Assembly (NCBI GenBank): GCA_027306495.1
Contig: DAHUZQ010000235.1
Coordinates: 1 to 23,315 of the forward strand
Length of the DNA: 23,315 bases
Reading direction: 5' to 3'
Origin: Actinomycetota bacterium
GTDB lineage: Bacteria; Actinomycetota; Actinomycetes; Streptosporangiales; Streptosporangiaceae
Below are positions 895 to 21,127 of the stretch, in pieces (position 1 is the first letter of the stretch; every line of letters starts with the position of its first letter). The notes under the pieces were generated by a model that was not told where the DNA came from, did not search any database, and saw nothing but the letters and a program-made list of their open reading frames with translations. The position numbers were made by a program, and so were the translations under genes.

Positions 895-1683
895 TCATGA
901 GCACACCAGGACGCCCGTAGCCGTGCGCACCCGCAGGAGTCCGTCGGCTCCGAACCTCAGGCCCCGGACAACTTCGGCGACCACCGACTCATAATCCGCC
1001 ACCTGCTCGGCGATGACCATGCTGCGCAGGTAGTCCTCGACTGGCCGCCCGTCCGGCAGGAGCAACTCCCCCACGAATTCGTGACGGGCCACCGAACTGA
1101 AAACCTGCCGCGCCAGCGCCTCGCCCGCGTCCAGACGCAGCGACTCATGCACCGCCAGGCCCTCACCACGGCCGCGCAGGACCGCCGACAGCGCGCTGAG
1201 CAATTCCAGCAGGTGACCCTCACCGTTGAACATGATCAGCACCCGGCCGCCGAGACGGGTGACACGGCGCAGTTCCCAGACCGCACAGACGGGTTGGGCC
1301 ACGTGGTAGAGCATGTGCATCGCCAGGGCCACATCGCAGCAAGCGTCCCGCAGTGGCAGGGACGCCGCGTCCCCGACCACCAACGACGCGGCCGGGAGGC
1401 GCCGGCGCACCGCGCTGAGCATGCCCGGTGACAAGTCGACGCCCAGCACCCGCCGCACCCGCCCGGGCCCCAGAAACTCGGCCAGGTACTTGCCGTTCCC
1501 GCAGCCAATGTCGGCAACAGTCTCGTCGCCGCACGGCCCGAGCAGCGACACGATCTCCCGGGCGAGATCGACCACCGGCCGCTGATAGGCGTAGATGGAC
1601 TGACGGGCCGCGAGGTTGTCCTCGGTCCGGTACTGGGAATCCAGCGACGCGCGGCCTGACCATGCCTGCGCATCGTCCGCCAC
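895..1683 (-). CDS. class I SAM-dependent methyltransferase
   Basis: Glycine-rich SAM-binding motif I (VADIGCGNGKYL) with an acidic motif II (LGVDLS) about 20 aa downstream. The GTG start overlaps the TAG stop of the upstream FHA-PrsW gene (CTAGTG), and AGGAG lies 9 nt upstream. Stop is TGA at 895-897. Confidence 0.8.
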   Translation of the reverse strand: MADDAQAWSGRASLDSQYRTEDNLAARQSIYAYQRPVVDLAREIVSLLGPCGDETVADIGCGNGKYLAEFLGPGRVRRVLGVDLSPGMLSAVRRRLPAASLVVGDAASLPLRDACCDVALAMHMLYHVAQPVCAVWELRRVTRLGGRVLIMFNGEGHLLELLSALSAVLRGRGEGLAVHESLRLDAGEALARQVFSSVARHEFVGELLLPDGRPVEDYLRSMVIAEQVADYESVVAEVVRGLRFGADGLLRVRTATGVLVCS

Positions 1684-3241: not shown

Positions 3242-4186
3242 CTATTCCCTGGCCGCCCCGGGCCGGTGTATTCCGAGCGGTCGCGGCGGGGACGGTGCCA
3301 CCTCGAGGGCCTCATCCCGCAGCAGCAGGGCAACAGCGGTGTCATCGCCGCTGCCCGCCGCCGACGCGCACGCCGCGGCCCAGGCCGGCAACTGCGCGCG
3401 GACCCAGCCGATGCCCTGGTCACGGGCGAACCGCACCAGATCGGACCCCACCGGCTGCTGCCAGGGATCGGTTACCAGCGCGTTCCCGAATCCGTCGGTC
3501 GCCAGCAGGACGGCAGCGACGTCCTCGCGGGCCAGATCGAGCACGGCACACCGGAACGATCGCACCGCGTCCGGTTGGCACAGGCTGGTCGTCCGGCGCC
3601 CATCCAGCCGTTCATCCCCGGGAACGGGCGTCGAAGCCCTGCCCTGCCCGTCAACCACGACGATGTCACCATCGCCGATCTGGCAGAGTCCCAGCCAGGA
3701 GCCCACCACGGCCGCCAGCAGCAGGGTGGTCCCATACGCCACCGAACCGCTCTCACCGGGCCGCAACCACCCACGTTCGTCCTGATCGAGGGGGTGCTCG
3801 AGCAGGTCATCCTCGACAGCGAACCGCCAGGCGGCGATGATGGCCGGGATCACGGCACCGCCCAGGACATGCTCCACCTCGCCGGTGGCCCCGCCGGCCG
3901 CGAGGTCGGCGGACCGTTCGATCAGCGCCGATCCGGCGACGCGGACGGCGAACTGCGCGCCCGTGGCGCTGCGGCCGTGCCGTGGGTGCCCGTGCCCGTC
4001 AGCCACCGCCAGGGCCAGGAGGCCACCGGGGTGCCCCGGATCGCCGAAGCAGGCCACCACGTCCTGGATGGGCCGCCCGGCCGCTTCGTGAGCGGCGCCG
4101 CGGGCGGTGGCTGTCAGGGTCTGCCACCGCAGGGGAAGGGCACGGGGAGGTGCCCCGGAGTCAGACAATCGGGTCCTTCTCAGCAT
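3242..4186 (-). CDS. PP2C-family Ser/Thr protein phosphatase
   Basis: PP2C motifs are present: LAVADGHGH (metal-binding DGxGG-like), GTTLLLAAV, GDGDIVVV, LLATDGF and DDTAVALL. Stop is TAG at 3242-3244. The start is uncertain: ATG at 4186, or TTG at 4168 preceded by a GAGAAGGA RBS. Confidence 0.8.
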   Translation of the reverse strand: MLRRTRLSDSGAPPRALPLRWQTLTATARGAAHEAAGRPIQDVVACFGDPGHPGGLLALAVADGHGHPRHGRSATGAQFAVRVAGSALIERSADLAAGGATGEVEHVLGGAVIPAIIAAWRFAVEDDLLEHPLDQDERGWLRPGESGSVAYGTTLLLAAVVGSWLGLCQIGDGDIVVVDGQGRASTPVPGDERLDGRRTTSLCQPDAVRSFRCAVLDLAREDVAAVLLATDGFGNALVTDPWQQPVGSDLVRFARDQGIGWVRAQLPAWAAACASAAGSGDDTAVALLLRDEALEVAPSPPRPLGIHRPGAARE

Positions 4187-4463: not shown

Positions 4464-5669
4464 CTAGCCTGCGGCGCGATCCACGACGCGCCCTTTCCAG
4501 GCACCACCCCGCCCGCTGTGATGGCGGCGGGCGGAATCGACTGTCATGGCCGCATACAGGACGGCGACCAGCGGCAGCGTGGCCGCACGCAGCGGTGAGA
4601 GCCGGTACATCCGCAACACGGGAACATAGGTCGCGGTCATGAGCAGAGCGGCGGCCCAGCCAGCGGCAGCCGTCACTGCCGCGGCCACTGTCCCGTTCGC
4701 CAGCCAGGCGGCCAGGCCACCCACCGCGGCCACCGGCGGCACCAGGTAGATCCATGCCAGCCCGACCACCACCAGAGCCAGCAGCATCGGTGAATACCGG
4801 AGCTGGGTGTAGGCACTGCGGGCGATCATCTCCCACAGCGACCGCAGGGTCGGATACGGCCGCCGGCTCTCAAGATCCACCGAGAACCCGAGCCAGCACG
4901 GCGACCGCGCCGGAGAACGCTTGAGAAGCCGCGCGAGAGCGACATCATCGATCCGCGCACCGGAGATCATCTGCAGCCCGCCCGCAGCGGCCAGCGCGGA
5001 CCGGCGCACCAGCATGCAGCCGCCCGCCGCCGCGGCCGTGCGGCTGCGGGCGCGGCTCGCGCGCCGGAATGGATAGAGCTGGCCGAAAAAGTACACAAAG
5101 GCCGGCACGATCAACCGCTCCCAGCCGCTGTCGGCCCGCAGCAACACCATCTGCGACACCAGATCGAACGGGCCGCCCTCGGCCGCCCGTACCAGCGACC
5201 GCAGGGCGTCCGGCGACCAGCTGATGTCGGCGTCGGTGAACAGAAGGTAGTCGCTGCCGCCGGCCGCCGTGACGCCCTGCGCCATCGCCCAGACCTTGCC
5301 CGCCCAGCCGGCAGGAGGAGGACAACCTGCGATGACACGCAGCCGGGAGCCAGGGCCGGCCAGCGACGAAGCCACTTGTGCCGTCCCATCGGTGCTGGCG
5401 TCGTCGACCAGCACGACCCGCAGCCTGCCCGGATAGTCCTGCCTCAGCAGCGTCGGCAAGGTCTGCGGCAAGATCGCGGCCTCGTCGCGGGCAGGCACGA
5501 CCACGCTCACGCACGGCCAGGTCCCCGGTCCCGGACCTGGCCGTCGCGCGTCATCGCCTGCTGGGCAATCTGGCAGGCGATGATCCGCCCGCCAGTAGCC
5601 GCCGTGCCCCAGCAGCAGGTATCCCCAGGCGAGGGCGGCGAGCACCGTGACCGCAACGGCGACGATCAC
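4464..5669 (-). CDS. family-2 glycosyltransferase with N- and C-terminal TM segments; HpnB-like (hopanoid-associated glycosyltransferase) by architecture and context
   Basis: GT-A motifs are present: VSVVVPARDEA, LVDDASTDGT and a DAD-like TDADI. It has an N-terminal TM helix and 3-4 C-terminal TM helices. The GTG start has GAGG 6 nt upstream, only 8 bp after the flotillin stop. Membership of the HpnB family cannot be proven without an HMM search. Confidence 0.7.
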   Translation of the reverse strand: MIVAVAVTVLAALAWGYLLLGHGGYWRADHRLPDCPAGDDARRPGPGPGTWPCVSVVVPARDEAAILPQTLPTLLRQDYPGRLRVVLVDDASTDGTAQVASSLAGPGSRLRVIAGCPPPAGWAGKVWAMAQGVTAAGGSDYLLFTDADISWSPDALRSLVRAAEGGPFDLVSQMVLLRADSGWERLIVPAFVYFFGQLYPFRRASRARSRTAAAAGGCMLVRRSALAAAGGLQMISGARIDDVALARLLKRSPARSPCWLGFSVDLESRRPYPTLRSLWEMIARSAYTQLRYSPMLLALVVVGLAWIYLVPPVAAVGGLAAWLANGTVAAAVTAAAGWAAALLMTATYVPVLRMYRLSPLRAATLPLVAVLYAAMTVDSARRHHSGRGGAWKGRVVDRAAG

Positions 5670-5677
5670 GTGCTACC

Positions 5678-6856
5678 TCAGCCGGCCCCCTGGCCATCCG
5701 CCTGCCCATCGGGCTGACCGTCCGCCCCGCCGGCTGCGGGGAGCCCGGCGGACTGGCTGCCGGGCGCGCGGTCCAGTTCGCCGTTCACGCTCTTCCTCAC
5801 CGTGCTGAGGATCGACAAGCCCTGGCCAACGAGACTCGCGGCGATCTCACTCAGCCCATCGGCGCCGTTCAGCACGCTGACGTTGGCTCCTCCGAGGCCA
5901 GCGGCGGCTTCCTTGACGATCTGGGGAAGCTGGTTGATGAGCATCTGGTCGAGCGCGATCCGGTTGTTGGAGGCAGCCGCCTGCGCCTGGATCGTCACCC
6001 GCTCCGCCTCGGCTCTGGCCAGCACACGCACGCGTTCGGCTTCGGCTTCGGCCGGCTTGACCACCTCGGCCACGAGTTGGCGCTCGCGCAGTTCCGCCTG
6101 CTGACGGGCGAGTTCGGCCTGTGCCGCGATGACCTTGAGTTGCGCCTGCGCCTGGGAGAGCGGCCCGGCCTGGGCCGCCTCGGCCTGGGCCTTGTCGATC
6201 TGGGCCTTGTACTCGGCCTGCACGACCGCGGTCTGCCGGGCGTACTCGGCCTGCTTGCGCTGCGATTCCTGCTCGGCCTCGGCCGCCGCCTGGTTGGCCT
6301 GAGCCTGGGCGATCTGAGCCTGGCGGCGGATCGCCGCGTTGTGTGGCGCGGCCATCGAGTCGATATAGCCCGCGTTCATATCGTCGATCGACTGGATTTG
6401 CAGGGAGTCCACGGTCAGGCCGATCTTGACCATCTCCACCTTGGATCCGTCGAGGACCTCCGTCGCCAGTTTCTGGCGTTCGGTGACGATTTCCTCGACC
6501 GTCATGGATCCCACGATCGACCGCAGGTGGCCCGCGAAGATCCGCCCGGTCAGAGTTGACATCTGATCCTGATCGGACAGGAAACGCTGGCCCGCATTGA
6601 CGATGCTTTCCTCGTCGTTGCCAACCTTGAAAGCGATGACCGCTCGCACGTTGAGTGCAATACCCTGCCGGGTCACACAGGTCTCGGCGACTTCCGCCTC
6701 CTGCATTGACAAGGTCAGGTAACGAGCCTTGCGGAAGAAGGGGGCGACGAATGCGCCATGGCCGACCACCACCCGGAACGGCGCTCCACTGTGCCAGCGC
6801 CTGCCGCCGGCGACCAGCATGGCCTCGTCAGGCGCTGGGACACGGTATCCGAACAT
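5678..6856 (-). CDS. flotillin (SPFH/band-7 domain plus Ala/Glu/Gln-rich coiled-coil flotillin domain), FloT homologue lacking an N-terminal membrane hairpin
   Basis: GHLRSIVGSMTVEEI is identical to the FloT core motif. The N-terminal PDEAMLVAGG aligns to FloT GPDEALIVTG. A long EA/AQ-rich coiled-coil segment follows. A strong RBS (GGAACAGGAGCAGG) precedes the ATG. An in-frame upstream stop prevents any N-terminal extension. Confidence 0.85.
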   Translation of the reverse strand: MFGYRVPAPDEAMLVAGGRRWHSGAPFRVVVGHGAFVAPFFRKARYLTLSMQEAEVAETCVTRQGIALNVRAVIAFKVGNDEESIVNAGQRFLSDQDQMSTLTGRIFAGHLRSIVGSMTVEEIVTERQKLATEVLDGSKVEMVKIGLTVDSLQIQSIDDMNAGYIDSMAAPHNAAIRRQAQIAQAQANQAAAEAEQESQRKQAEYARQTAVVQAEYKAQIDKAQAEAAQAGPLSQAQAQLKVIAAQAELARQQAELRERQLVAEVVKPAEAEAERVRVLARAEAERVTIQAQAAASNNRIALDQMLINQLPQIVKEAAAGLGGANVSVLNGADGLSEIAASLVGQGLSILSTVRKSVNGELDRAPGSQSAGLPAAGGADGQPDGQADGQGAG

Positions 6857-8601: not shown

Positions 8602-10632
8602 ATGATCGTTGCGATGGTTAGCCACACATCCGTCCGGACCCTGATCCTGGGTGTAACGGCCTCGGGGCGGCTAGTGGAGCATGACCGCACCGCCCCCGAA
8701 GTCATCGCCGCCCCGGACGGGCCGCTGCTTGGTGCGCAGTTCAGCGATGTGATCGCCGAACCGGCGCTGCCGGGGTCTGCGCTCGCGGGTGTGCTGGAGG
8801 CGATCTCAGCCGGACGGGAGGCTACCGCCGTCCTCGCCGTACGGACCCGCCGCGGCCACCCGGTCGAGGCCGTCGTGTCCGTGCAGCCCATGCGCAGCAG
8901 TGAATCCAAGGTCGCGGCGCTGATCATGCTACGGGTCCCACCACCGAGCGAAGAGCAGTTCATGGACCCGGCGGTCATCCGTTACGCACTGCTCAGCGAC
9001 ACCTTCCGGCATATCGGGACCACTTTGGACCTCGACCAGATGGCCCGGGGGCTGGTCAACATCCTGGTCCCGCATTTCTGCAACGCCGCCGGCCTGCTGG
9101 TGCTGGAAAGCCTCGCCGCGGCCGACGAGCCCACGCCGCGGGCAGAGGGCGACCATCTGCTGCGCCGGCTCGCGTTCGCCGGCGACCCCGGCGACGCGGC
9201 GTGGGAGGCGATGTTCCCGCTCGGCGAAACCGTGCGGCACGCACCCGGCAGCCCGCAGGCACTCTGCCTGCAAACAGGTAAGCCCATGCGGGAGTCGGAT
9301 GTCGGCATCGGCCACTCCTTCACACGCTCCCCGATGCACGGGCCGGCGACGCATCTGCTCGATCGTGCGTCCATGCTGGTGCTTCCCCTGATATCCGGCG
9401 ACAGCGTGCTGGGCGAGATCGTGTGCCTGCGCCGCTCGGGCCTGCGCGCCTTCGACTCCTATGACACAGAGATCGGCATGGAGTTCGCGAGCCGGGCCGC
9501 CATCTTCACCGAGAACGCGCGGCGCTACAACCGGGAACGGACCACGGCGATCATGTTGCAGCGCAGCCTGCTGCCGACCGGCCTGACGGTTCCCTCCTCC
9601 GTCCAGGTTGCCCACCGCTATCTGCCCGGCAGCCATCTCGTCGAGGTCGGCGGCGATTGGTATGAGTCGCTCACGCTGCCCGGGGCGCGGGCGGCCCTGG
9701 TGGTCGGGGATGTGGCAGGCCACGGGGTGGGTGCCGCCGTGACCATGGGCCGGCTGCGGACCGCCATCCAGACCCTCGCCATGCTGGAACTCCCGCCGTC
9801 GGAGTCGCTGCAGCAGCTCGACGAACTCATGCATGTGATCGGCGTCCGCGAACCGCACTTCGCCACCTGCGTCTACGCGACCTACGACGCGGTGAACGGC
9901 ACCTGCGAGATCGCGTCGGCGGGCCACCTCCCGCCCCTGCTCGTCAGCCCCGATGGGGCCGCCCGCTACCTTGACCTGCCCGCGGCACCACCGCTGGGCG
10001 TGGGTGAAGGCCCCATCCGCAGCACGGCCCTCACCGTAGAGGACGGGAGCCTGCTGATCCTCTACACCGACGGCCTGGTGGAGAGCCGCACCGCCGACAT
10101 CGATGTGGGCCTGGAACGGCTGCGGGCGGCGTTCGCCGCCGGTGTGGCGGACCTGACGGTAGAGGAACTCTGCACGGCCGCCCTGGCCAGTGCCTATGCC
10201 GAGGAGCAGCGTGACGATATCGCCGTGCTGATCGCGCGGTTGCGCCGGATCGACCCTGGGCAGCACGTCTCCTGGGATCTGCCGGGGGAGGTCACAACCG
10301 CCGGCCGGGCGCGGGCGCTGGTCGGCGAGCCGCTGGCGCGGTGGGACCTGGCGGCCATGCTGCCGCTCACCCAGTTGCTCGTATCCGAACTGGTGACCAA
10401 CGCGATCCGCTACACCAGCGGCCCGGTGATGGTGCGTCTCATCAACGAGGGCTCGCTGGTGTGCGAGGTGTACGACAACTCACCGGCATTGCCCAGGCTC
10501 CGGCATGCGGCCCGCGACGATGAATGCGGCCGCGGGCTGGAGATCGTCAGCCAGATGTCGGACCGGTGGGGCGCGCGGCGCACTCCTTCGGGCAAAGTCG
10601 TCTGGTGCGAGCAGAAGCTCCCCAATCGCTGA
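8602..10632 (+). CDS. multidomain signalling protein: N-terminal sensor region + GAF + PP2C/SpoIIE phosphatase + C-terminal RsbW/SpoIIAB-like HATPase_c kinase domain
   Basis: GAF-like region spans about aa 130-300. SpoIIE/PP2C motifs are present: ERTTAIMLQRSLLP, GGDWYE, GDVAGHGVGAA and LLILYTDGLVE. The C-terminal part carries ELVTNAIRY...GRGLEIV, the N-box/G-box of anti-sigma-factor-type kinases. ATG at 8602; an alternative start is the ATG at 8614. Confidence 0.8.
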   Translation: MIVAMVSHTSVRTLILGVTASGRLVEHDRTAPEVIAAPDGPLLGAQFSDVIAEPALPGSALAGVLEAISAGREATAVLAVRTRRGHPVEAVVSVQPMRSSESKVAALIMLRVPPPSEEQFMDPAVIRYALLSDTFRHIGTTLDLDQMARGLVNILVPHFCNAAGLLVLESLAAADEPTPRAEGDHLLRRLAFAGDPGDAAWEAMFPLGETVRHAPGSPQALCLQTGKPMRESDVGIGHSFTRSPMHGPATHLLDRASMLVLPLISGDSVLGEIVCLRRSGLRAFDSYDTEIGMEFASRAAIFTENARRYNRERTTAIMLQRSLLPTGLTVPSSVQVAHRYLPGSHLVEVGGDWYESLTLPGARAALVVGDVAGHGVGAAVTMGRLRTAIQTLAMLELPPSESLQQLDELMHVIGVREPHFATCVYATYDAVNGTCEIASAGHLPPLLVSPDGAARYLDLPAAPPLGVGEGPIRSTALTVEDGSLLILYTDGLVESRTADIDVGLERLRAAFAAGVADLTVEELCTAALASAYAEEQRDDIAVLIARLRRIDPGQHVSWDLPGEVTTAGRARALVGEPLARWDLAAMLPLTQLLVSELVTNAIRYTSGPVMVRLINEGSLVCEVYDNSPALPRLRHAARDDECGRGLEIVSQMSDRWGARRTPSGKVVWCEQKLPNR

Positions 10633-10660: not shown

Positions 10661-11662
10661 TCAGCCACGCAGCGCGCGCAGTGACTGCCGCAGTGAGCCC
10701 ATGGTGGCGAGCACCGCGGACGGCTCGTAGCCGCAGTGCGCCATGCAGTTCGCGCACCGGGGGTCCCTGCCCCGGCCGTAGGCTTCCCAGTCGGTGGTCT
10801 CGATGAGCTCGGCGTACGTGCGGGCGTAGCCGTCGGCCATCAGGTAGCAGGGCCGCTGCCAGCCGAGCAGCGAGTAGGACGGGATACCCCAGGCGGTGCA
10901 GCCGAAGTCGGTCTTGCCCTCCAGGAAGTCCAGGAACAGCGGTGAGTGGTTCAGCCGCCAGCGCCGCCGGTTACCGCCTGCGAACGCCTTGCGGAACAGT
11001 TCCCGGGTCTCACCGACACCCAGGAAGTGCTCCTGGTCGGGCGCCTTCTCGTAGGCATAGGCCGGGGAGATCTGCATCTGGTCGATGCCCAGGTCGTCGT
11101 TGAGGTAGCTCAGCACGTCGATCACGGTCTGCGCAGTGTCGGTGTTGAAGAAGGTGGTGTTGGTGTTGACCTTGAACCCGCGCGCCTTGAGTTGGCGCAC
11201 CGCTGCCACAGCTTCGTCGAAGACGCCCTCCTTGCAGACTGATTCGTCGTGGCGGTCCCGCAGGCCGTCGATGTGCACGACCCACGCGAAGTAGGGCGAC
11301 GGGGCGAACTTGTCGATCTTCTTGCTGACGAGCAGCGCGTTGGTGCACAGGAACACGAACTTCTTGCGGGCGATGAGCCCGCGCACGATCTGGTCTATCT
11401 GCGGGTGCATCAGCGGCTCGCCGCCGGCGATCGACACCATCGGCGCCCCGCACTCCTCGATCGCCGCGATCGCCTGCTCGACCGGCATCCGTTGCTTCAG
11501 GATGTCGTGCGGATGGGCGATCTTGCCGCACCCTGCGCACTTCAGGTTGCACGCGAACAGCGGCTCCAGTTCCACCAGCAGCGGGAACTTCTGCCTTCCG
11601 GCCAGCTTCTGGCGCAGCAGATATGACCCGATCGCGAGGCTCTGGCGCAGTGGCATGCTCAT
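10661..11662 (-). CDS. hpnH: adenosylhopane synthase HpnH (radical SAM, hopanoid side-chain formation)
   Basis: CNLKCAGC radical-SAM cluster motif (CxxxCxxC) near the N-terminus. C-terminal Cys cluster (CANCMAHCGYEP) typical of HpnH. Located in the hopanoid operon. Confidence 0.9.
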   Translation of the reverse strand: MSMPLRQSLAIGSYLLRQKLAGRQKFPLLVELEPLFACNLKCAGCGKIAHPHDILKQRMPVEQAIAAIEECGAPMVSIAGGEPLMHPQIDQIVRGLIARKKFVFLCTNALLVSKKIDKFAPSPYFAWVVHIDGLRDRHDESVCKEGVFDEAVAAVRQLKARGFKVNTNTTFFNTDTAQTVIDVLSYLNDDLGIDQMQISPAYAYEKAPDQEHFLGVGETRELFRKAFAGGNRRRWRLNHSPLFLDFLEGKTDFGCTAWGIPSYSLLGWQRPCYLMADGYARTYAELIETTDWEAYGRGRDPRCANCMAHCGYEPSAVLATMGSLRQSLRALRG

Positions 11663-13209
11663 CAGGACCTGACCTCCCTCGGCAGGCTGAATCGGATGTT
11701 CTCAGTGGTGATCACACGCTCGCTGACCCGCACCGGGCCGAGCCCGCCGAGCGCGTCGATGATCTCTGCGACCACCGAAGGCGGGGCGGACGCCCCAGCC
11801 GTCAGCCCCACCGTCCTCACCCCGGCCAGCCAGCTCAGCGCGATGTCGGCGGGCCCGTCGATCAGGTGCGCCCGAACCCCCGTGCGCTCGGCGGTCTCCA
11901 CCAGCCGGACCGAATTGGAGGAGTTCGCCGACCCGGCCACCAGCACCAGGTCCGAGGCGGCCGCGACCGCCCGGACCGCGTGCTGACGGTTGGTCGTCGC
12001 GTAGCAGATGTCGTCGCTGCCCGGCGCGCGGGCAGCCGGGAAGCGCTCCAGCAGCGCCCGGGCGACCTCAGCCGCCTCGTCCGTGGACAGGGTCGTCTGC
12101 ATGAGGTAGGCGACCTTGCCCTCGTCGGCGGGGCGCAGCCGGGCCACATCCTCGACGGTTTCCACCAGCGCCATCGCCGCGGGCGCCTCGCCGAGTGTCC
12201 CCTCGACCTCTTCGTGCCCGGCGTGACCGATCAGGGCCACCAGGTAGCCTTCGGCGGCGAACCGCCGGGCCTCGGCATGGACCTTGGACACTAGCGGGCA
12301 GGTGGCGTCCACCGCCGTAAGCCCGCGCCCGGCGGCCTCCTCCCGCACCGCCGGTGAAACCCCGTGTGCGGAGAACACCACCCGGGCCCCGTCCGGCACC
12401 TGCGACAGTTCGTCGACGAATACCGCGCCCCGCCGCTCCAGGCCGGCCACCACGTGGGTGTTGTGCACGATCTGCTTGCGCACGTAGACCGGTGGCCCAT
12501 GCTGGGCAAGCACGCGTTCCACGATCTCGACAGCACGCTCCACCCCCGCGCAGAACGACCTCGGGCCGGCCAGCAGCACTTCCCGCGGGCCGGCGGCGGC
12601 GGCCCACCTGGCGAGCACCGGCCCGGCCGCGCGCAGCGAGCGCAGTGCCGCGGTGCCGCCGCGGATCAGCGCCGGGGAGAGCAGCGGCTGGCCCGCCGTA
12701 TCCGATACCGCCCGGATCACCGCCAGCGGCCGGTCACCCGCGGCCGCCGCCAGGTCGAACGATTCGCGGTCGGCCACCAGCGCTCCCCAGCCAGCCAGCC
12801 GTTCCCGCTGATGGCCGCGCACAAGGCGGTCCACGGTCACCACCCGCCCCGCCCGGGCGCGCAGGCCCGCCCGCCGTAGCTCGCCGGCCAGCAGGGGAGC
12901 GGCCGGGCACGCGATCATGGCACGGCCGTCGGTCACCTCGTTCCCTACCACACTGTCGCCGGGGACCAGGTCCGCGGCAAGCCCTCCGCTGGTCCCCGCG
13001 ACCGCCAGCATCCGGAAATCCTCGCGGGTGAGCCGTGCCGCCCGGCTGCGCGCCCGGGCCCGGCCATAGCCGGTGACCAGCACCCGCCCGCCGTTCCCGA
13101 GTCCACCCCGGACAGCCCGCGCCTCCGGCCACAGCGGGGCACAGACCACCAGTGCCGGACCGGGTGGCCCAGGATCGGCCGGCGCCGCCCGCTGGGGTGG
13201 CCCGGTCAT
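11662..13209 (-). CDS. ispH: fusion protein: N-terminal HpnG-like purine nucleosidase (PNP/MTA-nucleosidase fold) + C-terminal IspH/LytB (4-hydroxy-3-methylbut-2-enyl diphosphate reductase)
   Basis: N-terminal part has [14 protein letters not shown] (catalytic Glu region) and [11 protein letters not shown] (SDxA motif), as in MTA/adenosylhopane nucleosidases. From about aa 205 ([23 protein letters not shown]) to the end is a full-length IspH, with the conserved Cys at AVDATCPLV and a third Cys near ICYATTNRQ. The ATG overlaps the shc stop (ATGA). Confidence 0.8.
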
Positions 13210-15140
13210 GGTGTCACCGCCAGATACCGGCCGAGTGCGCTCACCGGGAACACCAGCCGGTAGAGGTGGTAGTTCAGGTAGAAGTCACCGGGGAACCCAG
13301 TCCCGGTGAACTGCGGTTCGTCCCAGCCGCCGTCACCGCGCTGGTGCTCGGCCAGCCAGCCGATGCCGCGCTCCACAGCGGGGCCGGTTTCCGGTACGGC
13401 GAGCAGGGCCAGCAGCGCCCAGGCCGTCTGGGAGGCGGTGGAGACGCCGCGCCCAGCCAGCGACCTCTCATCGTAGGAACGCAGATCCTCGCCCCACCCG
13501 CCGTCGGAGTTCTGGTGCTCCTCCAGCCAGGCGACCGCCCGCCGGATGGCCGGCTTGGAGGCCGGGACGCCGGCCGCGATCAGCGCGGGGACCACGGCGC
13601 CGGTGCCATAGATGTAGTTGGCGCCCCAGCGGCCGAACCATGATCCGTCGGCTTCCTGTGCCCGCAGCAGCCAGACGACTCCACGCCGGGCGGCCGGGCT
13701 GCGGGCCAGGCCCTCGGCGGCCAGTGCCTCGACCACATGGGCGGTCACATCGGCCGACGGCGGGTCGGTCACAGCCCCGAAGTCGCAGAACGGCAGCTTG
13801 CCCACCAGGGTGGAGGTGTTGTCGGCGTCGAACGCTGCCCACCCTCCGTCCCGGCTCGCCATGGCGGTCATCCACCGCATGCCACGCTCGATGGCGGCCA
13901 GGCGGCCAGCGTCCGCGCCGTCCGTGCGGGCCCGCCGCAGCGCCAGCACTACCTCGGCGGTGTCATCGATGTCGGGATAGTTGTCGTTGTCGAACTCGAA
14001 CGCCCAGCCCCCGGGCGCCGCGCGCGGCCTGCGGACCCGCCAGTCGCCCGGGCCGGCGATCTCCTCGGCGAGCAGCCACCCGGCGGCCGCCCTGATCGCG
14101 GGGTGGTCCGGGGGCAGCCCGGCGTCGGCCAGGGCGGTGACCGCCAGCGCCGTGTCCCACACCGGTGACTGGCACGCCTCCAGGCGGCGTACCGGGCCCT
14201 CGGGCGAGTCCTCGACGATGGTGAACCTCTCCAGCCCGGCCAGCGCCCGCCGCATCACCGGGTGGCTGTTGCCGTACCCGAGCAGATGCAGTGCGATGAG
14301 CGAGTACACCCAGGGTGGCTGGATCCCGCCCCAGCAGCCGTCCCGTTCCTGGCGGGCCAGGATCCAGTCCGCGCAGCGGCGCAGCGCTGCCCGCCGGGCG
14401 GCGGTGGCGGGAGCGGCCCGGCCCACGTACCGCTCCCAGGTGTGCAGGGCCCGGTCCAGCTTGCCGAATGCCGCAGCCCACCCCCGGGAGTCCGGCGCCG
14501 TGGCCCGGCGGCGCCCGGCCGGGCCGCCCACCCGCAGTTCGGCCACCGTGAACGGCAGCGACCGCACCGGCCGCAACGCGGAGACGACCGTGAGCGGGAC
14601 GATGGTCTGACGTGCCCAGCATCCCCAGTCATAAATGTTGAAGGGCGCCCACGAGGGCAGGTAGATCAGTTCGGGGGGCATCACCGGCAGGTCGTCCCAC
14701 GACCATTCGCCGAACAGTGCGAGCCAGATCCGGGTGAACACGCGGGTGGCGTTGATGCCGCCCTGTTCGCGGATCCACGCCGCGGCCAGCCGCAGCGGCT
14801 CCTCCCGGGGGGAGTGCCCGGCCAGTCGCAGCGCGATGTATGCCTCCACCGTCGTGGACAGGTCGCCGGGGCCGCCGAAGAAGTTTGCCCACGTGCCGTC
14901 CTGGCGCTGCTGTGAGGCGATCCACCGGGCGGATGCCAGCGTCTGCTCCGCCGTCCGCACCCCGAGGAATTCGCGCATCAGCAGATCCTCGGCGTCCATG
15001 GTGACGTTCGTCTCCAGCTCGCCTTTCCACCAGCCCTGCCCCTGCTGCAGGCCGAGCAGGTGATCGACCGCCCGCCGCAGGGCGGCCCGGGCCGCGGGGG
15101 TGGCAGCGGGCTGGCTGGGGCGCGGCGCGGTCACGGTCAT
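13206..15140 (-). CDS. shc: squalene-hopene cyclase
   Basis: Multiple QW repeats ([45 protein letters not shown]) and the catalytic DIDDTAEV (DxDDTA) motif. The track ORF starts at a GTG at 15314, giving a 58-aa Arg/Pro-rich extension that overlaps the upstream gene. The ATG at about 15140 is preceded by GGAGGTG 8 nt upstream and leaves a 34-bp gap, so it is the preferred start. Confidence 0.9.
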
Positions 15141-15174
15141 GGGTGCGGGCACCTCCGTCTCGGCACGGCCGCGC

Positions 15175-16230
15175 TCACCACTGCCGGGCCGTGATGAACT
15201 CGGCGATGCTGGCGAACTCCGCCCGGACCTCGTCCGGCATCGGCGCCTGCGCCAGGCAGGCGTGCGCGGCGGCAAGCTGGGCGGCGGCCTCCTGCTCGGT
15301 CCAGCTCTTGCCACCTGCCTCCTCGACCAGCCGGGCGGCCCGCGCCAGCTCCGGTTCGCTCAGCGCCGCGCTGTCGCGCAGGAGGTCCGCCAGAGCGGCG
15401 GCGGGGGCGGTGCCGGCCTGCAGGGCTGCCACCACAGGCAGGGACTTCTTGCGCGCGCGCAGGTCCGAGCGGACGGGCTTGCCGGTCACCTCTGGCGCGC
15501 CCCAGATCCCGAGCAGGTCATCGGTGAGCTGGAAGGCCAGGCCCACATGCGCGCCGAACCCGGCCAGGCCCATCGCCAGCTCCGGGGATGCCCCCACGTG
15601 GATGGCGCCGATGCTGCACGCGCAGGCCATGAGCGCGGCCGTCTTGTCCCCGGCCATGGCCAGGCACTCGGCGAGCGGGACGTCCTCCCGCTGCTCGAAT
15701 GCCAGGTCCGCGCCCTGACCCGCGATCAGCCGCTGGACCGCCACCGACAGGCATCTGGCGGCCCACAGGCCCTGCGGTGCGGTGTCCTCGAGCAGCAGGT
15801 CCTGGGCGAGTGCGAGCAGCGCGTCGCCGGCCAGGATGGCCGCGCCCACCCCGAAAACAGTCCATGCGGTGGGCCGGTGCCGGCGCTCGGTGTCGCCGTC
15901 CATGATGTCGTCGTGCAGCAGCGAGAAGTTGTGCACCAGTTCCACCGCTACCGCGGCGGGAATCCCCTGCTCCGGGACGGCGTGGGCGGCACGGGCCGAG
16001 AGCAGGGTGAGTGCGGGCCGCAGCGCTTTGCCCCCGGACTTGCCACGGCCAGCAGCCGCGCCCGGATGCCGGCCGGCCCGGGCCGGAACGGTGGACTCGC
16101 TCCAGCCGTCGCCGCCGGCGAGCCCGAGGTGATAGACCGCCACCTTGCGCACGTCTGGGCTGAGCCGCGCCACCGCCGCTCCCAGTGCGGGACCGACCAG
16201 GTCACGGGCGTACTCAACGCCGGCCGGCAT
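15175..16230 (-). CDS. polyprenyl diphosphate synthase (FPP/GGPP synthase family) of the hopanoid operon
   Basis: First Asp-rich motif LLHDDIMD (DDxxD) and second Asp-rich motif LTDDLLG. The track ORF begins 89 codons upstream (16497) in an Arg-rich overlap with hpnE. The ATG at 16228-16230 (MPAGVEYARDL...) lies 8 bp after the hpnE stop. Confidence 0.8.
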   Translation of the reverse strand: MPAGVEYARDLVGPALGAAVARLSPDVRKVAVYHLGLAGGDGWSESTVPARAGRHPGAAAGRGKSGGKALRPALTLLSARAAHAVPEQGIPAAVAVELVHNFSLLHDDIMDGDTERRHRPTAWTVFGVGAAILAGDALLALAQDLLLEDTAPQGLWAARCLSVAVQRLIAGQGADLAFEQREDVPLAECLAMAGDKTAALMACACSIGAIHVGASPELAMGLAGFGAHVGLAFQLTDDLLGIWGAPEVTGKPVRSDLRARKKSLPVVAALQAGTAPAAALADLLRDSAALSEPELARAARLVEEAGGKSWTEQEAAAQLAAAHACLAQAPMPDEVRAEFASIAEFITARQW

Positions 16231-16238
16231 GACGGCGG

Positions 16239-17759
16239 TCACGCGCTCACCCCCGCCGGGCCGGGATCGGACAGCGGCAGGCCCTGCCTGCCGCCGGGCC
16301 TGGCGGGCGGTGGGACGGTCCAGTCCCCAGCGGGCCCGGCCGGGCCAGCCGCAAGGTCCGAGCGCACCTGGCGCGTCGCCATCAGTCCGCTGCGCACTGC
16401 TCCCTCCATCGTGTCCGGCCATCCGGTTTCGGTCCACGCTCCAGCCAGCACCAGCCCGGGCAGCGCTGTCGCCGACCCGGGGCGCAGCACGCCACACCCG
16501 GGACCCTGGCGGATCGTCGCCCGGCGCTCCCTGGTCACGAAGAAATCCAGCACCCGGGCCTGGCGCGCGGCGGGGAACAGCTCAGCAAGAGCGGGGATGA
16601 ACCGCTCCTCGAACGCGGCAGCGGGTGCGTCGACACAAGCGTCCGCGGCCGACAGCGACACCGCCAGGTACTGACCTGACGCAAGCCCGGCCGTCCCGCT
16701 CCGGTCGAACACCCACTGGACCGGTGAGTCCACCGCCGCGGCGAACGGCAGGCGGGTCACGCGCCGGTCATAGACCACATGAACGTTGACGATCGGCGAT
16801 TCCCCGAGGCCGGCCCACTGCGCCGGGCCGGGACCGTGCGTCACCGCACCCGGCGGAACCAGGCCGGCGGCCATCTTCGGCGGCACCGCCAGCACCCCGG
16901 CGTCGGCATCGATCCGCGGGCCGGCGGCCCGCGCGGGCCCGGCACCGCCCGCGGGCTCGCGCAGCCGGATACTGAACCCTCCGGCCCTGGCCGGCTCGAT
17001 CGCGCTCACCTTGGCGCAAAGCCGGACCGTCGCCCCGAGGCGGGCCAGCAGAGCGGCGGCGGCCCGCCCGTGCAGATCCCCCAACGGCACCGTGGGGACG
17101 CCGATGTCCGCCGCGTCCGCCCGGCCCAGCAGGGCTGTCCGCACGACGGTGGCCGCCAGGGCAAGGTCGGCGCCGTCCCCGGCCATGTTGAGGGTGGAGA
17201 CGGTGAACAGATCCCATAGCACCCGCCTGGTCCGCTCATCCTGGCCGTGGGCGGCGAGCCATTCTCCCAGGCTGGCCGCGCCGCCGGGCTTCGGGGAGGA
17301 GCCACGGGCAGTGGCCAGACCGGCGTCCGCCCGGCCCGCCGGCGCGAGCCTGGCCAGCGCGGCCGCGGCGGGGAACACCCGCAACCGCTGGGCCGGCGTC
17401 AGGAACCGGTAACCAGCCAGGGCGCGGCCCATATGCAGCGGCCCCGGCAGCCCGTCGCGCCACAGCCGGGCGCGGTCCCGCGGCGCGAGGACCGTCACGT
17501 CGAACCGGTCCTGCAGGGCGACCGAGCCGCTCATGCCGAGCCGGGCAAGCAACGTCCGGTAGGCATGGCAACAGCGCAGGAATATGTGCTGCCCATTGTC
17601 GACGCTCAGGCCCCCGCGCGAGAACGACGTTGTCGCTCCGCCGAGCCGTGGCCTGGCCTCCAGCAGGGTCACCCGCGCACCCGTCTCCGAAAGCGCGATG
17701 GCAGCGGTGATGCCAGCCAGCCCACCGCCCACCACGGCGACGTGACGCTGCGGCCTCAC
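16239..17759 (-). CDS. hpnE: HpnE, FAD-dependent hydroxysqualene dehydroxylase (amine-oxidase/phytoene-desaturase family)
   Basis: Rossmann FAD motif VAVVGGGLAGITAAIALSETGARVTLLE. The track ORF (start 18266) carries about 170 aa of Arg/Gly-rich artefact that overlaps hpnD. The preferred start is GTG at 17757-17759, which overlaps the hpnD TGA (GTGA). Confidence 0.8.
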   Translation of the reverse strand: MRPQRHVAVVGGGLAGITAAIALSETGARVTLLEARPRLGGATTSFSRGGLSVDNGQHIFLRCCHAYRTLLARLGMSGSVALQDRFDVTVLAPRDRARLWRDGLPGPLHMGRALAGYRFLTPAQRLRVFPAAAALARLAPAGRADAGLATARGSSPKPGGAASLGEWLAAHGQDERTRRVLWDLFTVSTLNMAGDGADLALAATVVRTALLGRADAADIGVPTVPLGDLHGRAAAALLARLGATVRLCAKVSAIEPARAGGFSIRLREPAGGAGPARAAGPRIDADAGVLAVPPKMAAGLVPPGAVTHGPGPAQWAGLGESPIVNVHVVYDRRVTRLPFAAAVDSPVQWVFDRSGTAGLASGQYLAVSLSAADACVDAPAAAFEERFIPALAELFPAARQARVLDFFVTRERRATIRQGPGCGVLRPGSATALPGLVLAGAWTETGWPDTMEGAVRSGLMATRQVRSDLAAGPAGPAGDWTVPPPARPGGRQGLPLSDPGPAGVSA

Positions 17760-18670
17760 CGCGCGGCTCCCGCCGGCGGCTGCACTGGCGCGCGGCCCTG
17801 CCACAGGCCTGCCGCCAGCGAACGGACGGCGACCATCGCCTTCTCCCGTCCCGGCAGGGAGAGCCTGCCCTCGAGCACCGCGGCGGGGGTTGCCTCGATG
17901 TGCTCGAGCAGGCGCTGGTAGATGCCGGCCATGGCGCCGGCCGACGCGGCGCTGCGCCGGTCGAGCAGCGGTATCAGCGCCAGCCCGCGCTGATACCAGC
18001 CCCGGGCACGGTCCGCCTCGAACTCGACCAGCGATGCGAGGCGGCCGTCCCCAGCGGAGGGCCCGGCGGCGAAGGAGCATCCGAAGCGTTCGAGGTCTTC
18101 GGCCGGCAGATACACCCGCCCGGTGAGGTAGTCCTCCCGGATATCGCGCAGGATGTTGGTGAGTTGCAGCGCCACGCCCAGCGCATCGGCCAGCGGAGCC
18201 GCGGTGGCCGGGTCGTCGCAGCCGAAGACGCCCAGTGACAGCCGGCCTATCGAACCCGCCACGCACCTGCAGTAGTGCAGGAGGTCATCGAAGGTGCGAT
18301 AGGTGACCCCCCTGACATCGGCCTCGCACCCGTCGATGAGCTCGCCGAAGGCGGCCAGCGGGATGTCGAACCGGTGCGCGGCGTCGGCCAGTGCCGTCAG
18401 GACCGGATCGCCGCTGGCGGCAGGGCCTGCGGCGTTCCCATCGCCGCTCACCAGGTCCGCCAGGCTCTGCCGGGCACCCGCCAGCGCCACCAGCTTGGCC
18501 TCCTGCGGCAGGTCGCCATCCCCGATGTCGTCTATCCGGCGCGCGAAGGCGTAGACGGCCGCCAGTGCCTGCCGCTTGGCTGGGACCAGCAGCCTGATCC
18601 CGTAGGAGAAGTTCCTCGCCTGCGACCAGGTGATCTCCTCACAGGTCCGGTAGGCCGCCCGGACGTCCAT
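17756..18670 (-). CDS. hpnD: HpnD, presqualene diphosphate synthase (squalene/phytoene synthase family)
   Basis: SQS/PSY family motifs AAVYAFARRIDDIGD and YCRCVAGSIG, and the NILRDIRED region. The preferred start is the second ATG (MDVRAAYRTCEEIT), with GGAGGTG 6 nt upstream that contains the hpnC TGA stop. Confidence 0.85.
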   Translation of the reverse strand: MDVRAAYRTCEEITWSQARNFSYGIRLLVPAKRQALAAVYAFARRIDDIGDGDLPQEAKLVALAGARQSLADLVSGDGNAAGPAASGDPVLTALADAAHRFDIPLAAFGELIDGCEADVRGVTYRTFDDLLHYCRCVAGSIGRLSLGVFGCDDPATAAPLADALGVALQLTNILRDIREDYLTGRVYLPAEDLERFGCSFAAGPSAGDGRLASLVEFEADRARGWYQRGLALIPLLDRRSAASAGAMAGIYQRLLEHIEATPAAVLEGRLSLPGREKAMVAVRSLAAGLWQGRAPVQPPAGAAR

Positions 18671-18674
18671 CGCT

Positions 18675-19601
18675 TCACCTCCCCGTCGCATAGGCCTTCA
18701 GCAGTTCCGCGGCGACGGCTCCGCCGCGCGGCCGGGGAGTGGACCGCAGCACGTCATGTCCGCTGCGGGCAACCGCGGCCAGGGCGGCCCGGCCGCCTGC
18801 GACGTAGCCCGCGACCGCGGCCCGGGCGGCCCCGCGCAGCGTCCCGATCAGCGGTGCGCCCCGGTCCAGCAGGTAGCGGGCCCGGTCGGCCTCGAAGGCG
18901 ACCAGCGCCACAACCCGCGGCCCGGCGGCGGGGGCAGCAAGGTCCCGCTCGCCGCAGCCGAACCGCCGCAAATCCTCCACAGGCAGGTAGATACGGCCCT
19001 TCCGCAGGTCCTCAGCGACATCCTGGATGTGCTCTACCAGTTGCAGGGCCGTGCAAACATCATCTGAGCGGGTGATGCGCCCAGGGGTCGCGGCACCGAA
19101 GATGTGCAGCACAACCTGGCCCACCGGGTTGGCCGAGAGCCGGCAATAGGCCACCAGGTCATCGAACGCCGGGTAGCGGCTCACCTCCTGGTCCTGGCGA
19201 TTCGCCTGGATCAGGTCGAGAAAGGGCTGTGCCGGTATAGCGCACTGTGCGACCGCCGGGGCGAGGGCGCGGATCACGGGCAGATGAGGCCCGTCCGGCG
19301 CGGGCGGGAGCGGCACATCCTGCCAGAGCCGGCCGTCGTAGAGACGGCGCAGGTCCGCTTCGAGTTCATCGAGCAGCGCCCGGCGCGGGCCCGGTGCTTC
19401 GTCGCCGATGTCGTCAGCCGTCCGTGCGAACGCGTAGAGGGCGGCCAGATGGCGCCGGTGGCGGCGCGGCAGGAACCGCAACGCCACCGGGAAGTTCTCA
19501 CTCGAAGCCTGGCGGGCCGCGCCCGCGGCGACTCCGGCGACGGCTTCGGCCGCTGATCCGGGCGGTGCCTGCCCGGCGGCCGGCGGCTGATCCGGGATCA
19601 T
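18675..19601 (-). CDS. hpnC: HpnC, hydroxysqualene synthase (squalene/phytoene synthase family)
   Basis: ENFPVA motif near the N-terminus, plus LYAFARTADDIGDE and YCRLSANPVGQ. The preferred start is the ATG at 19599-19601 (MIPDQ...), with GAAGGGA about 9 nt upstream in a locally AT-richer region. The track start is at 19637. Confidence 0.85.
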   Translation of the reverse strand: MIPDQPPAAGQAPPGSAAEAVAGVAAGAARQASSENFPVALRFLPRRHRRHLAALYAFARTADDIGDEAPGPRRALLDELEADLRRLYDGRLWQDVPLPPAPDGPHLPVIRALAPAVAQCAIPAQPFLDLIQANRQDQEVSRYPAFDDLVAYCRLSANPVGQVVLHIFGAATPGRITRSDDVCTALQLVEHIQDVAEDLRKGRIYLPVEDLRRFGCGERDLAAPAAGPRVVALVAFEADRARYLLDRGAPLIGTLRGAARAAVAGYVAGGRAALAAVARSGHDVLRSTPRPRGGAVAAELLKAYATGR

Positions 19602-20032
19602 GAACTCTATCCCTTCACAGTTTCCGGCTAATTGCAAACAATGACATTCGCGTCACCTGACATCTGTGTCGGGGAATGCGTCGCGGTGGTCATCAAAGAC
19701 CTCGCAGCCGCAGCCGCCCCGGTCCGCGCGGCGATCCGGGCAGCCGCCAAGCTGGCGCCCATACCGGCCCGGCCAGCCGGGACATCCCGCGTAAAGTGCG
19801 CCATCGCCCTGCTGGAAGGTCATTGCCCGAGTACTCGCCACCGGGCACTGCCCCTGACCGCCCGGGTGGCACAGCCGCATTGCGGCCAGCAGCATGCGGA
19901 CCAGGCAAAAGCGCGCTAATCGTCACGGGATGTTTTCTGGAAACAAGCGAGATGAATGACATCCGCAATGGGAGTGGCCACTGGTGAAACAGCAGAAAAG
20001 GCATGTGCCCAGCCGGGGGGCGGGCCAGGGCG
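19602..20032. promoter_or_regulatory. 430-bp non-coding leader/promoter region of the hopanoid operon, with lower-GC segments at 19602-19660 and 19920-20000
   Basis: No ORF with convincing codon bias; the two overlapping same-phase antisense ORFs have third-position GC of only 71-79%. AT-richer stretches (ttgcaaacaatgacattc; gatgttttctggaaacaagcgagatgaatgacatcc) stand out against about 72% GC. It lies upstream of hpnC and downstream of the membrane PP2C gene. Confidence 0.4.
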
Positions 20033-21127
20033 TCAGTGCCGCCAGATGATCGCCAGCGCGCAGTCGTCCGTGCTCGGGCCCGACTGCATGGACTTCACCA
20101 GGTCGTCCGCTGCCCGGAAGCCGGAATTGGCCAGCCGGTCGGCCTCCCCGAGCAACCGGTCGGTGCCGTAGTCGATGTCCCGGCCGGGCAACTCCACCAG
20201 CCCATCGGTGTAGATCATGAGGGCGTCACCCGGTCGCAGGGTGCCCCGCTCCGGCGTCAAGCGCAGATCCTCCACGACACCGAGGACAATGCCGTGCGCC
20301 CGGGTCATCCGCCAGGTGGCGCTGGCCCCGTCGAAATGCGCCGCAGGCGGATGCCCCGCACAGCCCACCAGATAGTCGCCACTTGCCAGATCGATGGTGA
20401 CGTGGATGGCGGTGACAAAGCCGTCCGATCCGCCGCCCCGCAGCAGGTAGGCGTTGCACGCCGGCAGGAACTCGTGCCGCGCCACCGTGCCGAGCAGGCC
20501 GCCGAACGCCCCAGAGAGCAGCAGGGCCCGTGTCCCGGCGGTGACCCCCTTGCCCGCCACGTCCACCAGGGCGATTTCCAGCACCTTCTCGTCGCAGGTG
20601 GAGACCAGAAAGTCGCCACCGAACGAGGAACCGCCAGCAGCCTTGAGCACCGAAACCGACCCCCAGCCCTCCGGGAGTTCCGGCAGGGTGCCCTGAGCAC
20701 GGATCCGGTCCCGCAACTCGATCAGCATGTGCTCGCCGCGCAAGCCCTTCATGCCGAGTTTTTTGCGGGTGCGGGCGAGGACGTCGGCGAGCAGTGCCGT
20801 CACCACAATGGTCGCGATGAGCCCGGGGCCGGCCCGGCCGCGCAGGAAGTCGTACAGCAGGCCAGCCGCGACGATCACATACAGCGCCCGCAGTGCCCGG
20901 GGCGTCAGCAGCAGGCCACCCGCCAGCACCGGCAGGATCAGCAGGCCGGGGGAGAACCATGCCCTCGACACGTGGACGGCGCCGACGCTGATCGCCACGG
21001 TCGCGAGCGCGAGGCCGAGCGCCAGCCGCCGGTTCCGGGTGATGACCTGCCGCCTCGCCAGGCCACCGGCATAGGCCGCGCCCGCACGTGCGGCGCGCAC
21101 CAGCCGGAACCGGGTGGGGGAAACCAT
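20033..21127 (-). CDS. membrane-anchored SpoIIE/PP2C-family phosphatase (RsbU-like), with 4-5 N-terminal TM helices
   Basis: Hydrophobic N-terminal third (LALGLALATVAISVGAV, LLILPVLAGGLLL, LYVIVAAGLLY, LIATIVVTALLADVL). PP2C/SpoIIE motifs are FGGDFL, DVAGKGV, LMIYTDGLVE and DDCALAII. Confidence 0.8.
   Translation of the reverse strand: MVSPTRFRLVRAARAGAAYAGGLARRQVITRNRRLALGLALATVAISVGAVHVSRAWFSPGLLILPVLAGGLLLTPRALRALYVIVAAGLLYDFLRGRAGPGLIATIVVTALLADVLARTRKKLGMKGLRGEHMLIELRDRIRAQGTLPELPEGWGSVSVLKAAGGSSFGGDFLVSTCDEKVLEIALVDVAGKGVTAGTRALLLSGAFGGLLGTVARHEFLPACNAYLLRGGGSDGFVTAIHVTIDLASGDYLVGCAGHPPAAHFDGASATWRMTRAHGIVLGVVEDLRLTPERGTLRPGDALMIYTDGLVELPGRDIDYGTDRLLGEADRLANSGFRAADDLVKSMQSGPSTDDCALAIIWRH

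Follow-up and report, generated by a model that had tools for sequence, protein, structure and literature searches.

A 'UDP/PNP phosphorylase-IspH' fusion was described in Frankia sp. QA3, EUN1f and EAN1pec by Rao et al. (2015, Chem Sci, PMC4746011), who classed it among the fusions 'found only in single species' and as possibly random, noted that the partner handles phosphorus, and drew no link to HpnG or to hopanoids. In Rhodomicrobium, the corresponding hopanoid genes are arranged in the order ispH-hpnH-hpnG-shc, with hpnG and ispH as separate genes (PMC4263297). Here, we describe a gene with the same domain order as the Frankia fusion (PNP_UDP_1 N-terminal, IspH C-terminal) on contig DAHUZQ010000235.1 (assembly GCA_027306495.1) from an Actinomycetota bacterium of the Streptosporangiaceae; the whole 23,315-nucleotide contig is referred to below as the window. 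The fusion architecture itself is already known from the 2015 Frankia report, and literature searches found no paper that ties it to HpnG. Our analyses make it likely that the gene encodes a genuine two-enzyme hopanoid-cluster protein, in which the actinobacterial form of HpnG is joined to a canonical IspH present as an extra copy, and that the fusion provides for co-expression of the two enzymes without channelling between them.

The fusion gene occupies positions 11662..13209 of the minus strand (the strand of every feature below unless stated otherwise) and is a single open reading frame (ORF) of 515 codons plus the stop. Its product consists of an HpnG-like domain with the nucleoside phosphorylase-I (NP-I) fold (residues ~20-205, 12595..13152), followed by a complete IspH (LytB) domain (residues 207-515, 11665..12591). 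The Pfam model PNP_UDP_1 (PF01048) matches residues 33-174 with 27.2 bits, marginally above its gathering threshold of 25.1, and LYTB (PF02401) matches residues 211-487 with 300.2 bits (threshold 24.5, E = 1.6e-89) over profile positions 1-266 of 267. The original prediction, made from the sequence alone, had proposed one polypeptide with an HpnG-like N-terminal part and a complete IspH, and had named these two models as a check; the uninterrupted frame and the two matches, both above cut-off, uphold it. At the domain junction (12577..12609), the sequence contains no stop and neither the sequence nor the AlphaFold2 (AF2) model contains a linker: the C-terminal helix of the nucleosidase (..RWAAAAG; residues 180-205 in the model) passes directly to the first IspH strand (residues 209-214), with a predicted template modelling (pTM) score of 0.84. 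The gene is equally tightly joined to its neighbors. Its start overlaps the stop of shc in an ATGA at 13206..13209, and its stop overlaps the start of hpnH in a TGATG at 11660-11664, part of a region (11660..11680) that also holds a Shine-Dalgarno-like site for hpnH, GAGGGAGG at 11673-11680, within the last IspH codons (LPREVRS). The ATGA overlap had been noted previously and was verified in the sequence; together with the flanking genes, it bears out the proposed location in a hopanoid cluster and the translational coupling to shc.

The extent of the fusion was assessed at both the protein and the genome level. In a search of 5.8 billion proteins, the best 120 clusters (at 90% identity) comprise proteins of 474-588 amino acids that are 71-79% identical to the query and align over 91-100% of it; 116 of the 120 contain both Pfam domains and the remaining four are recorded with PF02401 only. 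The nearest named relatives of the window protein are encoded by metagenome-assembled genomes (MAGs) of Streptosporangiaceae (~76% identity), and named fused proteins include those of Actinomadura bangladeshensis and Frankia sp. Cr1. One genome per species was then scanned with a motif from the N domain, derived from seven sequences that share AVDMESA; this gave 343 confirmed relatives, of which the best 80 loci were examined with ~6 kb on each side. In 52 of these, the fusion is in frame, without a stop, and retains at least 300 of the 310 IspH residues; in two, both from MAGs, the IspH part is frameshifted, and in 26 it is missing (one of these being cut by the contig end). Recurrence of the fusion on this scale, in proteins and in genomes, far exceeds what chance would produce. 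The intact fusions span three classes of Actinomycetota and occur in Streptosporangiaceae, Prauserella, Saccharomonospora, Amycolatopsis, Pseudonocardia, Frankia, Pseudofrankia and Jatrophihabitantaceae, in MAGs of Mycobacteriales and Propionibacteriales, in many Thermoleophilia and in some Acidimicrobiia. Intact, separate and adjacent hpnG and ispH genes were found in none of the 80 loci; either the pair is fused or ispH is gone.

These data bear directly on whether the single ORF could be a sequencing or assembly frameshift that merges two neighboring genes. Long spurious ORFs do arise in high-GC DNA, and the two frameshift-broken IspH parts in related MAG loci show that such damage occurs in this family; however, the junction is free of stops and frame changes in 52 independent loci, including those of cultured Amycolatopsis, Prauserella, Saccharomonospora, Pseudonocardia and Pseudofrankia, its sequence is conserved, and both parts are covered by the best 120 protein clusters. 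An artefact can consequently be given next to no credence, and the frameshift reading was dropped in the face of the full-length clusters and the in-frame genome loci. The frameshift check proposed with the original prediction is settled in favor of the fusion by the same in-frame junction in 52 of 80 loci. The accompanying remark that hpnG and ispH usually form two genes holds for Proteobacteria (Rhodomicrobium) but not for Actinomycetota, and the idea that the fusion is unusual does not survive, as it is the commonest state in the actinobacterial sample and its architecture was already listed for Frankia.

The surroundings of the gene are also shared. The order shc-[fusion]-hpnH is the same in at least 70 of the 80 related loci, and in 69 of 76 a Shine-Dalgarno-like GGAG, GAGG or AGGA precedes the hpnH start by no more than 24 nucleotides; where the genes are fused, it usually consists of the LPKEV codons (CCC AAG GAG GT). 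Several individual loci and proteins in the sample deserve separate mention. In Solirubrobacterales and Thermoleophilaceae (loci L008-L062, for example L012, L014, L021 and L028), other genes are inserted and shc lies ~3 kb upstream of the fusion. The two loci with a split IspH half (L037 and L080) come from long-read MAGs and represent either assembly errors or early pseudogenisation. Locus L045, on a contig labelled 'MAG: Burkholderia sp. PAMC 26561', contains a fusion of actinobacterial type with hpnH behind it, and groups with Solirubrobacterales in trees; it is probably a mis-binned contig. Finally, a 494-residue fusion labelled 'lytB-related protein lytB1 [Mycobacterium tuberculosis]' (P0301, CND58371.1) shares its 90%-identity cluster with A. 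bangladeshensis WP_131939061.1, and its M. tuberculosis label is almost certainly due to contamination or mislabelling.

The N-terminal half has the NP-I (PNP/MTAN) fold and retains the family's catalytic Glu and Asp. Its top NCBIfam family is HpnG (TIGR03468), matched at profile positions 19-162 of 212 with 55.3 bits against a cut-off of 187.1. Comparable scores are obtained throughout the branch (80 bits for the Streptomyces standalone protein, 76-96 for those of Myxococcota and 55-88 for other fused N-terminal halves), so the low value is a lineage effect, because the entire actinobacterial and myxobacterial branch falls below the cut-off. HpnG is the best family for each member tested, and models for MTAN and futalosine hydrolase score far lower. 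Three putative catalytic residues, E29 (13123-13125), E149 (12763-12765) and D170 (12700-12702), align with the Glu, Glu and Asp of the MTAN catalytic site and, together with R166, do not vary among the fused, truncated and standalone relatives compared. Nucleosidase motifs had been pointed out in the original prediction, and E29 and D170 each fall within one of them. The only local departure concerns residue 148 (codon CGC, 12766-12768), which is Arg in the window protein and Leu or Met in all 57 other fused homologues compared. This codon is one base from the Leu codon CTC, and the Arg is either a real variant affecting the pocket or a sequencing error.

Genetic context points in the same direction. 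The fusion occupies the shc-hpnH slot that is held in Streptomyces by a standalone 215-residue PNP-family gene. In S. coelicolor, the gene in this slot is orf14/SCO6765, and deletion of orf14 by Liu et al. in 2014 reportedly led to the accumulation of adenosylhopane. Accumulation of adenosylhopane is the general outcome of hpnG knockouts (PMC13459092), and the work of Liu et al. is cited for HpnG in PMC12583986. Taken together, profile ranking, catalytic residues and gene position suggest that the N-terminal half represents HpnG in its actinobacterial form and would act on adenosylhopane. It could instead be another NP-I nucleosidase (MTAN-like or futalosine-hydrolase-like) that does not cleave adenosylhopane, or an inactive structural domain. 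Such an assignment would account for the sub-cut-off TIGR03468 score, for the finding that the nearest solved folds are those of MTANs, for the weak sequence similarity to entries in the Protein Data Bank (PDB; E 0.045), and for Arg148 where all relatives have Leu or Met. We nevertheless regard it as decidedly unlikely, given that HpnG outranks the competing models for all members tested, that the low score is common to the whole branch including the Streptomyces gene in the same position, that related loci consistently place the gene between shc and hpnH, and that the catalytic Glu, Glu and Asp show no variation and the ratio of nonsynonymous to synonymous substitution rates (dN/dS) is low.

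The IspH half leaves less room for alternatives. It passes the IspH models TIGR00216 (296.2 bits, cut-off 187.85) and NF002190 (397.7 bits, cut-off 389), aligns with E. coli IspH over its whole length (325 bits) and has the three-domain trefoil fold of the family. C220 (12550-12552), C304 (12298-12300) and C402 (12004-12006) are the counterparts of E. coli C12, C96 and C197, the Cys ligands of the [4Fe-4S] cluster. Two of these, C304 (DATCPLV) and C402 (ICYATTNRQ), had been identified in the original prediction, which missed the third, C220 (SFCAGV). The residues that bind 1-hydroxy-2-methyl-2-butenyl 4-diphosphate (HMBPP) or participate in catalysis are also present: H249, H282, H332, E334, T372, S430, S431, N432 and S474 are equivalent to H41, H74, H124, E126, T167, S225, S226, N227 and S269 in the E. 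coli numbering. Across an alignment of 58 fused homologues, the quoted motif residues, the Cys ligands and the HMBPP-binding residues are all invariant. The C-terminal half is predicted to be a canonical [4Fe-4S] HMBPP reductase, with no hint of an altered substrate.

To evaluate selection on the two halves, dN/dS was calculated by the Nei-Gojobori method for ten closely related locus pairs. Its values are 0.03-0.39 in the N-terminal half, 0.04-0.26 in the IspH half and 0.07-0.25 in HpnH. Where the fusion is intact, purifying selection acts on both halves. A search of the N-terminal half against 1.84 billion representative proteins gave 933 matches at E ≤ 1e-3. The best 150 of these fall into three forms: full fusions, proteins of ~290-370 residues with a damaged IspH part, and proteins of ~190-230 residues. 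The Cys ligands are lost in the decayed forms P0209, P0131 and P0141; in P0209, Tyr and Val replace the first two Cys ligands and GDAGREES stands for GHAGHEEV, and P0141 has an internal deletion of about IspH residues 30-190. Some 20 others of ~290-370 residues retain just the final domain of IspH (positions ~185-266 of Pfam LYTB). Many of the ~190-230-residue proteins end in remnants of the IspH C terminus (..TMRFTIPKEVG, ..ARFALPKEVHDH and ..DVHFTLPKEKRPR), and related tails are found at the locus level in Kutzneria (..KVKEVRQ) and Gandjariella (..SREVGTK), whose relatives in the Pseudonocardiaceae carry full fusions, and in sponge-associated Acidimicrobiia (..LTKEVV). The reduced forms constitute a series that includes P0131, P0132, P0134, P0141, P0162, P0181, P0194, P0209 and P0253 and loci L013, L051, L056 and L063.

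Where remnants exist, the direction from fusion to decay is clear, because the F.LPKEVR tail belongs to IspH, that of E. coli included. The 3' end of the IspH sequence has probably survived because the LPKEV codons form the Shine-Dalgarno site of hpnH. One reduced form, P0132, is a singleton whose nearest relatives are full fusions at ~50% identity, and in neighbor-joining trees of the N-domain the reduced forms are interspersed with the fused ones; these trees were built without bootstrap, are star-like with short internal branches, and show interspersion only, not event counts. By the record of these sequences, the IspH half is dispensable in relatives, having repeatedly decayed or been deleted while the nucleosidase half and hpnH persist. 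The 3' end of the Streptomyces hpnG (CTC CCC AGG AGG TGA) was also considered as a frame-shifted LPKEV remnant (CCC AAG GAG GTG); this is unproven, as the shared bases approximate the Shine-Dalgarno consensus.

The decay series also informs on the status of the fused IspH in the cell. No further ispH is present within the whole 23-kb contig, and in some Proteobacteria the only ispH lies in the hopanoid cluster (PMC4263297); the fused copy could accordingly be the sole housekeeping IspH, in which case essential isoprenoid synthesis would hang on the hopanoid operon. However, IspG and IspH are kept by essentially all bacteria that use the methylerythritol phosphate (MEP) pathway (PMC10663253), and near relatives of the fused lineages have deleted or inactivated the IspH half, so a second copy is required at least there. 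We consider a sole housekeeping role rather unlikely, and this genome presumably contains a separate housekeeping ispH in addition to the fused copy.

If the fused IspH is an extra copy, the two halves would work in the same end-product pathway at distant points. The N-terminal nucleosidase/phosphorylase half would remove adenine from adenosylhopane, the product of the downstream and translationally coupled HpnH, and the C-terminal half would reduce HMBPP to isopentenyl diphosphate (IPP) as well as dimethylallyl diphosphate (DMAPP). Formation of IPP and DMAPP by IspH stands at the beginning of the pathway, and HpnG acts after squalene synthesis, cyclisation and HpnH. As the reactions are unrelated and non-consecutive and have no common intermediate, the fusion is better understood as a means of co-expression than of substrate channelling. 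The IspH half would most likely be a cluster-resident extra copy that raises precursor supply upon induction of the operon, with the fusion ensuring that a tailoring enzyme is expressed 1:1 with a copy of a rate-limiting MEP enzyme. The most likely origin would be a merger of adjacent, overlapping genes (hpnG-ispH-hpnH) in an ancestor of many Actinomycetota, and we favor an ancestral fusion over repeated gains. In Frankia alni, the 'HMBPP reductase' FRAAL1433, which lies beside shc (FRAAL1432), is induced ~5-fold in nodules along with shc (PMC10252897); judging from locus L016, FRAAL1433 appears to be the fused gene.

A more purposeful link between the halves must also be weighed, namely channelling between them or recruitment of IspH to the chemistry of the hopanoid side chain, for which reduction of (phospho)ribosylhopane to bacteriohopanetetrol and the delivery of electrons to HpnH are the candidate steps. 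The conversion of ribosylhopane to bacteriohopanetetrol is a step without an assigned enzyme (PMC12583986, PMC5462960), the fusion is widespread, of long standing and subject to purifying selection, its domains are confidently placed in a fixed arrangement by the AF2 model, and the fusion gene is translationally coupled to hpnH. Yet many steps separate IspH from HpnG, leaving no common intermediate; the residues that bind the diphosphate and hydroxyl of HMBPP are invariant, indicating the normal substrate; and many lineages in which the N-terminal half and hpnH persist have deleted the IspH half or lost its Cys ligands. Moreover, Streptomyces produces C35 hopanoids despite having no IspH half (PMC9228677). 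We judge a mechanistic purpose of this kind very unlikely. Its most specific form, in which the fused IspH, HpnG and coupled HpnH constitute one side-chain complex whose Fe-S chemistry serves the reduction to bacteriohopanetetrol or supports HpnH, appears highly improbable. Both functional suggestions of the original prediction are affected: metabolic channelling is implausible for two steps so far apart in the pathway, and moonlighting of the IspH half is unlikely when its HMBPP- and cluster-binding residues are invariant and the half itself is repeatedly lost or degraded in relatives.

Several observations weigh against the proposal of an actinobacterial HpnG fused to an extra copy of IspH. 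The N-terminal half fails formal TIGR03468 membership, for which reason it is named 'HpnG-like' here, and it passes PNP_UDP_1 only narrowly, at the bottom of the range of 27-47 bits scored by its relatives. Arg148 adjoins the invariant Glu149 and could impair substrate binding. The redundancy of the fused IspH copy is deduced solely from the repeated loss and decay in relatives, the trees do not firmly resolve the number and direction of those events, and no convincing IspH remnant was found in the standalone genes of Streptomyces and Myxococcota. 

The fusion lies within a minus-strand cluster of the order hpnC-hpnD-hpnE-polyprenyl synthase-shc-[fusion]-hpnH, in which all other hpn and shc genes score above their curated NCBIfam cut-offs. 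Downstream, hpnH (10661..11662) encodes the radical SAM enzyme adenosylhopane synthase (TIGR03470, 530.6 bits against 225; Radical_SAM and DUF3463 domains). Upstream, shc (13206..15314) encodes squalene-hopene cyclase (TIGR01507, 740.6 bits against 431); its family match begins only at residue 63, and the ORF start is probably over-extended. The remaining upstream genes form a block at 15175..19637, with the polyprenyl diphosphate synthase gene at 15175-16497, hpnE within 16239-18266 (370 bits), hpnD at 17756-18691 (285 bits) and hpnC at 18675-19637 (294 bits). The polyprenyl diphosphate synthase has as its top NCBIfam match 'family 2 encapsulin cargo polyprenyl transferase' (NF041169), with 397.6 bits under a cut-off of 450, and its ORF includes ~90-150 additional N-terminal residues, which may reflect an over-extended start in high-GC DNA. 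Some 5 kb from hpnH, a gene for an HpnB-type hopene-associated glycosyltransferase (TIGR03469, 456 bits against 379) adjoins one for an SPFH/flotillin-like protein (Band_7 and Flot domains), the pair occupying 4464-5669 and 5678-6856; this juxtaposition of hopanoid and membrane-microdomain genes may not be coincidental. Signalling genes surround the cluster (8602-10632 on the plus strand; 3242-4186, 20033-21127 and 1683-3122 on the minus strand): a gene for a GAF-SpoIIE(PP2C)-HATPase protein directly adjoins hpnH, and the others encode two more PP2C/SpoIIE phosphatases and an FHA-PrsW protease.

These findings matter chiefly to annotation and to surveys of genomes for hopanoid biosynthesis. 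Where fused proteins are named, they carry only IspH or 'HMBPP reductase' names, and HpnG is invisible in fusion-bearing genomes because of this. The reverse error is found in proteins without LYTB: many 215-residue Streptomyces (L070 cluster) and 178-residue Kutzneria (L063 cluster) proteins bear the name '1-hydroxy-2-methyl-2-butenyl 4-diphosphate reductase' or 'HMBPP reductase' in NCBI, UniRef and IMG, the reductase name on these standalone HpnG-like proteins presumably having been copied from fused relatives. HpnG surveys that rely on TIGR03468 will overlook the HpnG-like half in Actinomycetota, as its scores are far below the cut-off. A 2025 preprint using this model reported that some Actinomycetota have HpnH yet lack the downstream enzymes (PMC12324291), a result for which the sub-threshold scores offer an explanation. 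The known chemistry of HpnG and IspH is unchanged by the fusion, with no sign of new chemistry. The family provides a clear natural series of domain decay within a fusion protein, and its distribution suggests that many actinobacterial hopanoid clusters, including the nodule-induced cluster of Frankia, carry their own IspH, which may interest those engineering terpenoid flux.

Comparison with known systems places the fusion protein between several described arrangements. With the standalone HpnG proteins of Proteobacteria and Streptomyces (TIGR03468), the N-terminal half has in common the NP-I fold, the catalytic Glu and Asp and the hpnH/shc neighborhood; it differs in its fusion to IspH and in a shortened C-terminal helix, its match ending at profile position 162 of 212. 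Relative to E. coli IspH (PDB 3zgl, 3f7t), the window protein adds an N-terminal enzyme domain of ~205 residues, and its IspH lies in a hopanoid operon, where the last codons also serve hpnH as its ribosome-binding site. A functional parallel is provided by MEP paralogues that reside in terpenoid clusters, such as ispG and dxs in the hopanoid cluster of S. coelicolor and lytB1 and dxs2 near the diterpene cluster of M. tuberculosis. In these, as in the window, an extra rate-limiting MEP enzyme is present in a terpenoid cluster, presumably for precursor supply, but the paralogues are separate genes, whereas that of the window is fused to a tailoring enzyme. The 'Rosetta stone' fusions IspH-RPS1 and IspH-UbiA (PMC4746011) and the bifunctional IspH/S1 proteins of NF000907 likewise join an intact IspH to an unrelated protein; there, the partner is C-terminal and has no relation to hopanoids, whereas in the window protein it lies at the N terminus and is part of the same end-product pathway. 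The nearest counterpart is the Frankia fusion, reported from one genus and found here in a different lineage. The Frankia and Pseudofrankia loci (L016-L018) have the same shc-fusion context, and their products show 44-45% identity to the window protein over the N-terminal half and 63-64% over IspH. What is new here, relative to that report, is the identity of the partner as HpnG-like, the operon context, the spread over Actinomycetota, the series of IspH decay and the annotation problem.

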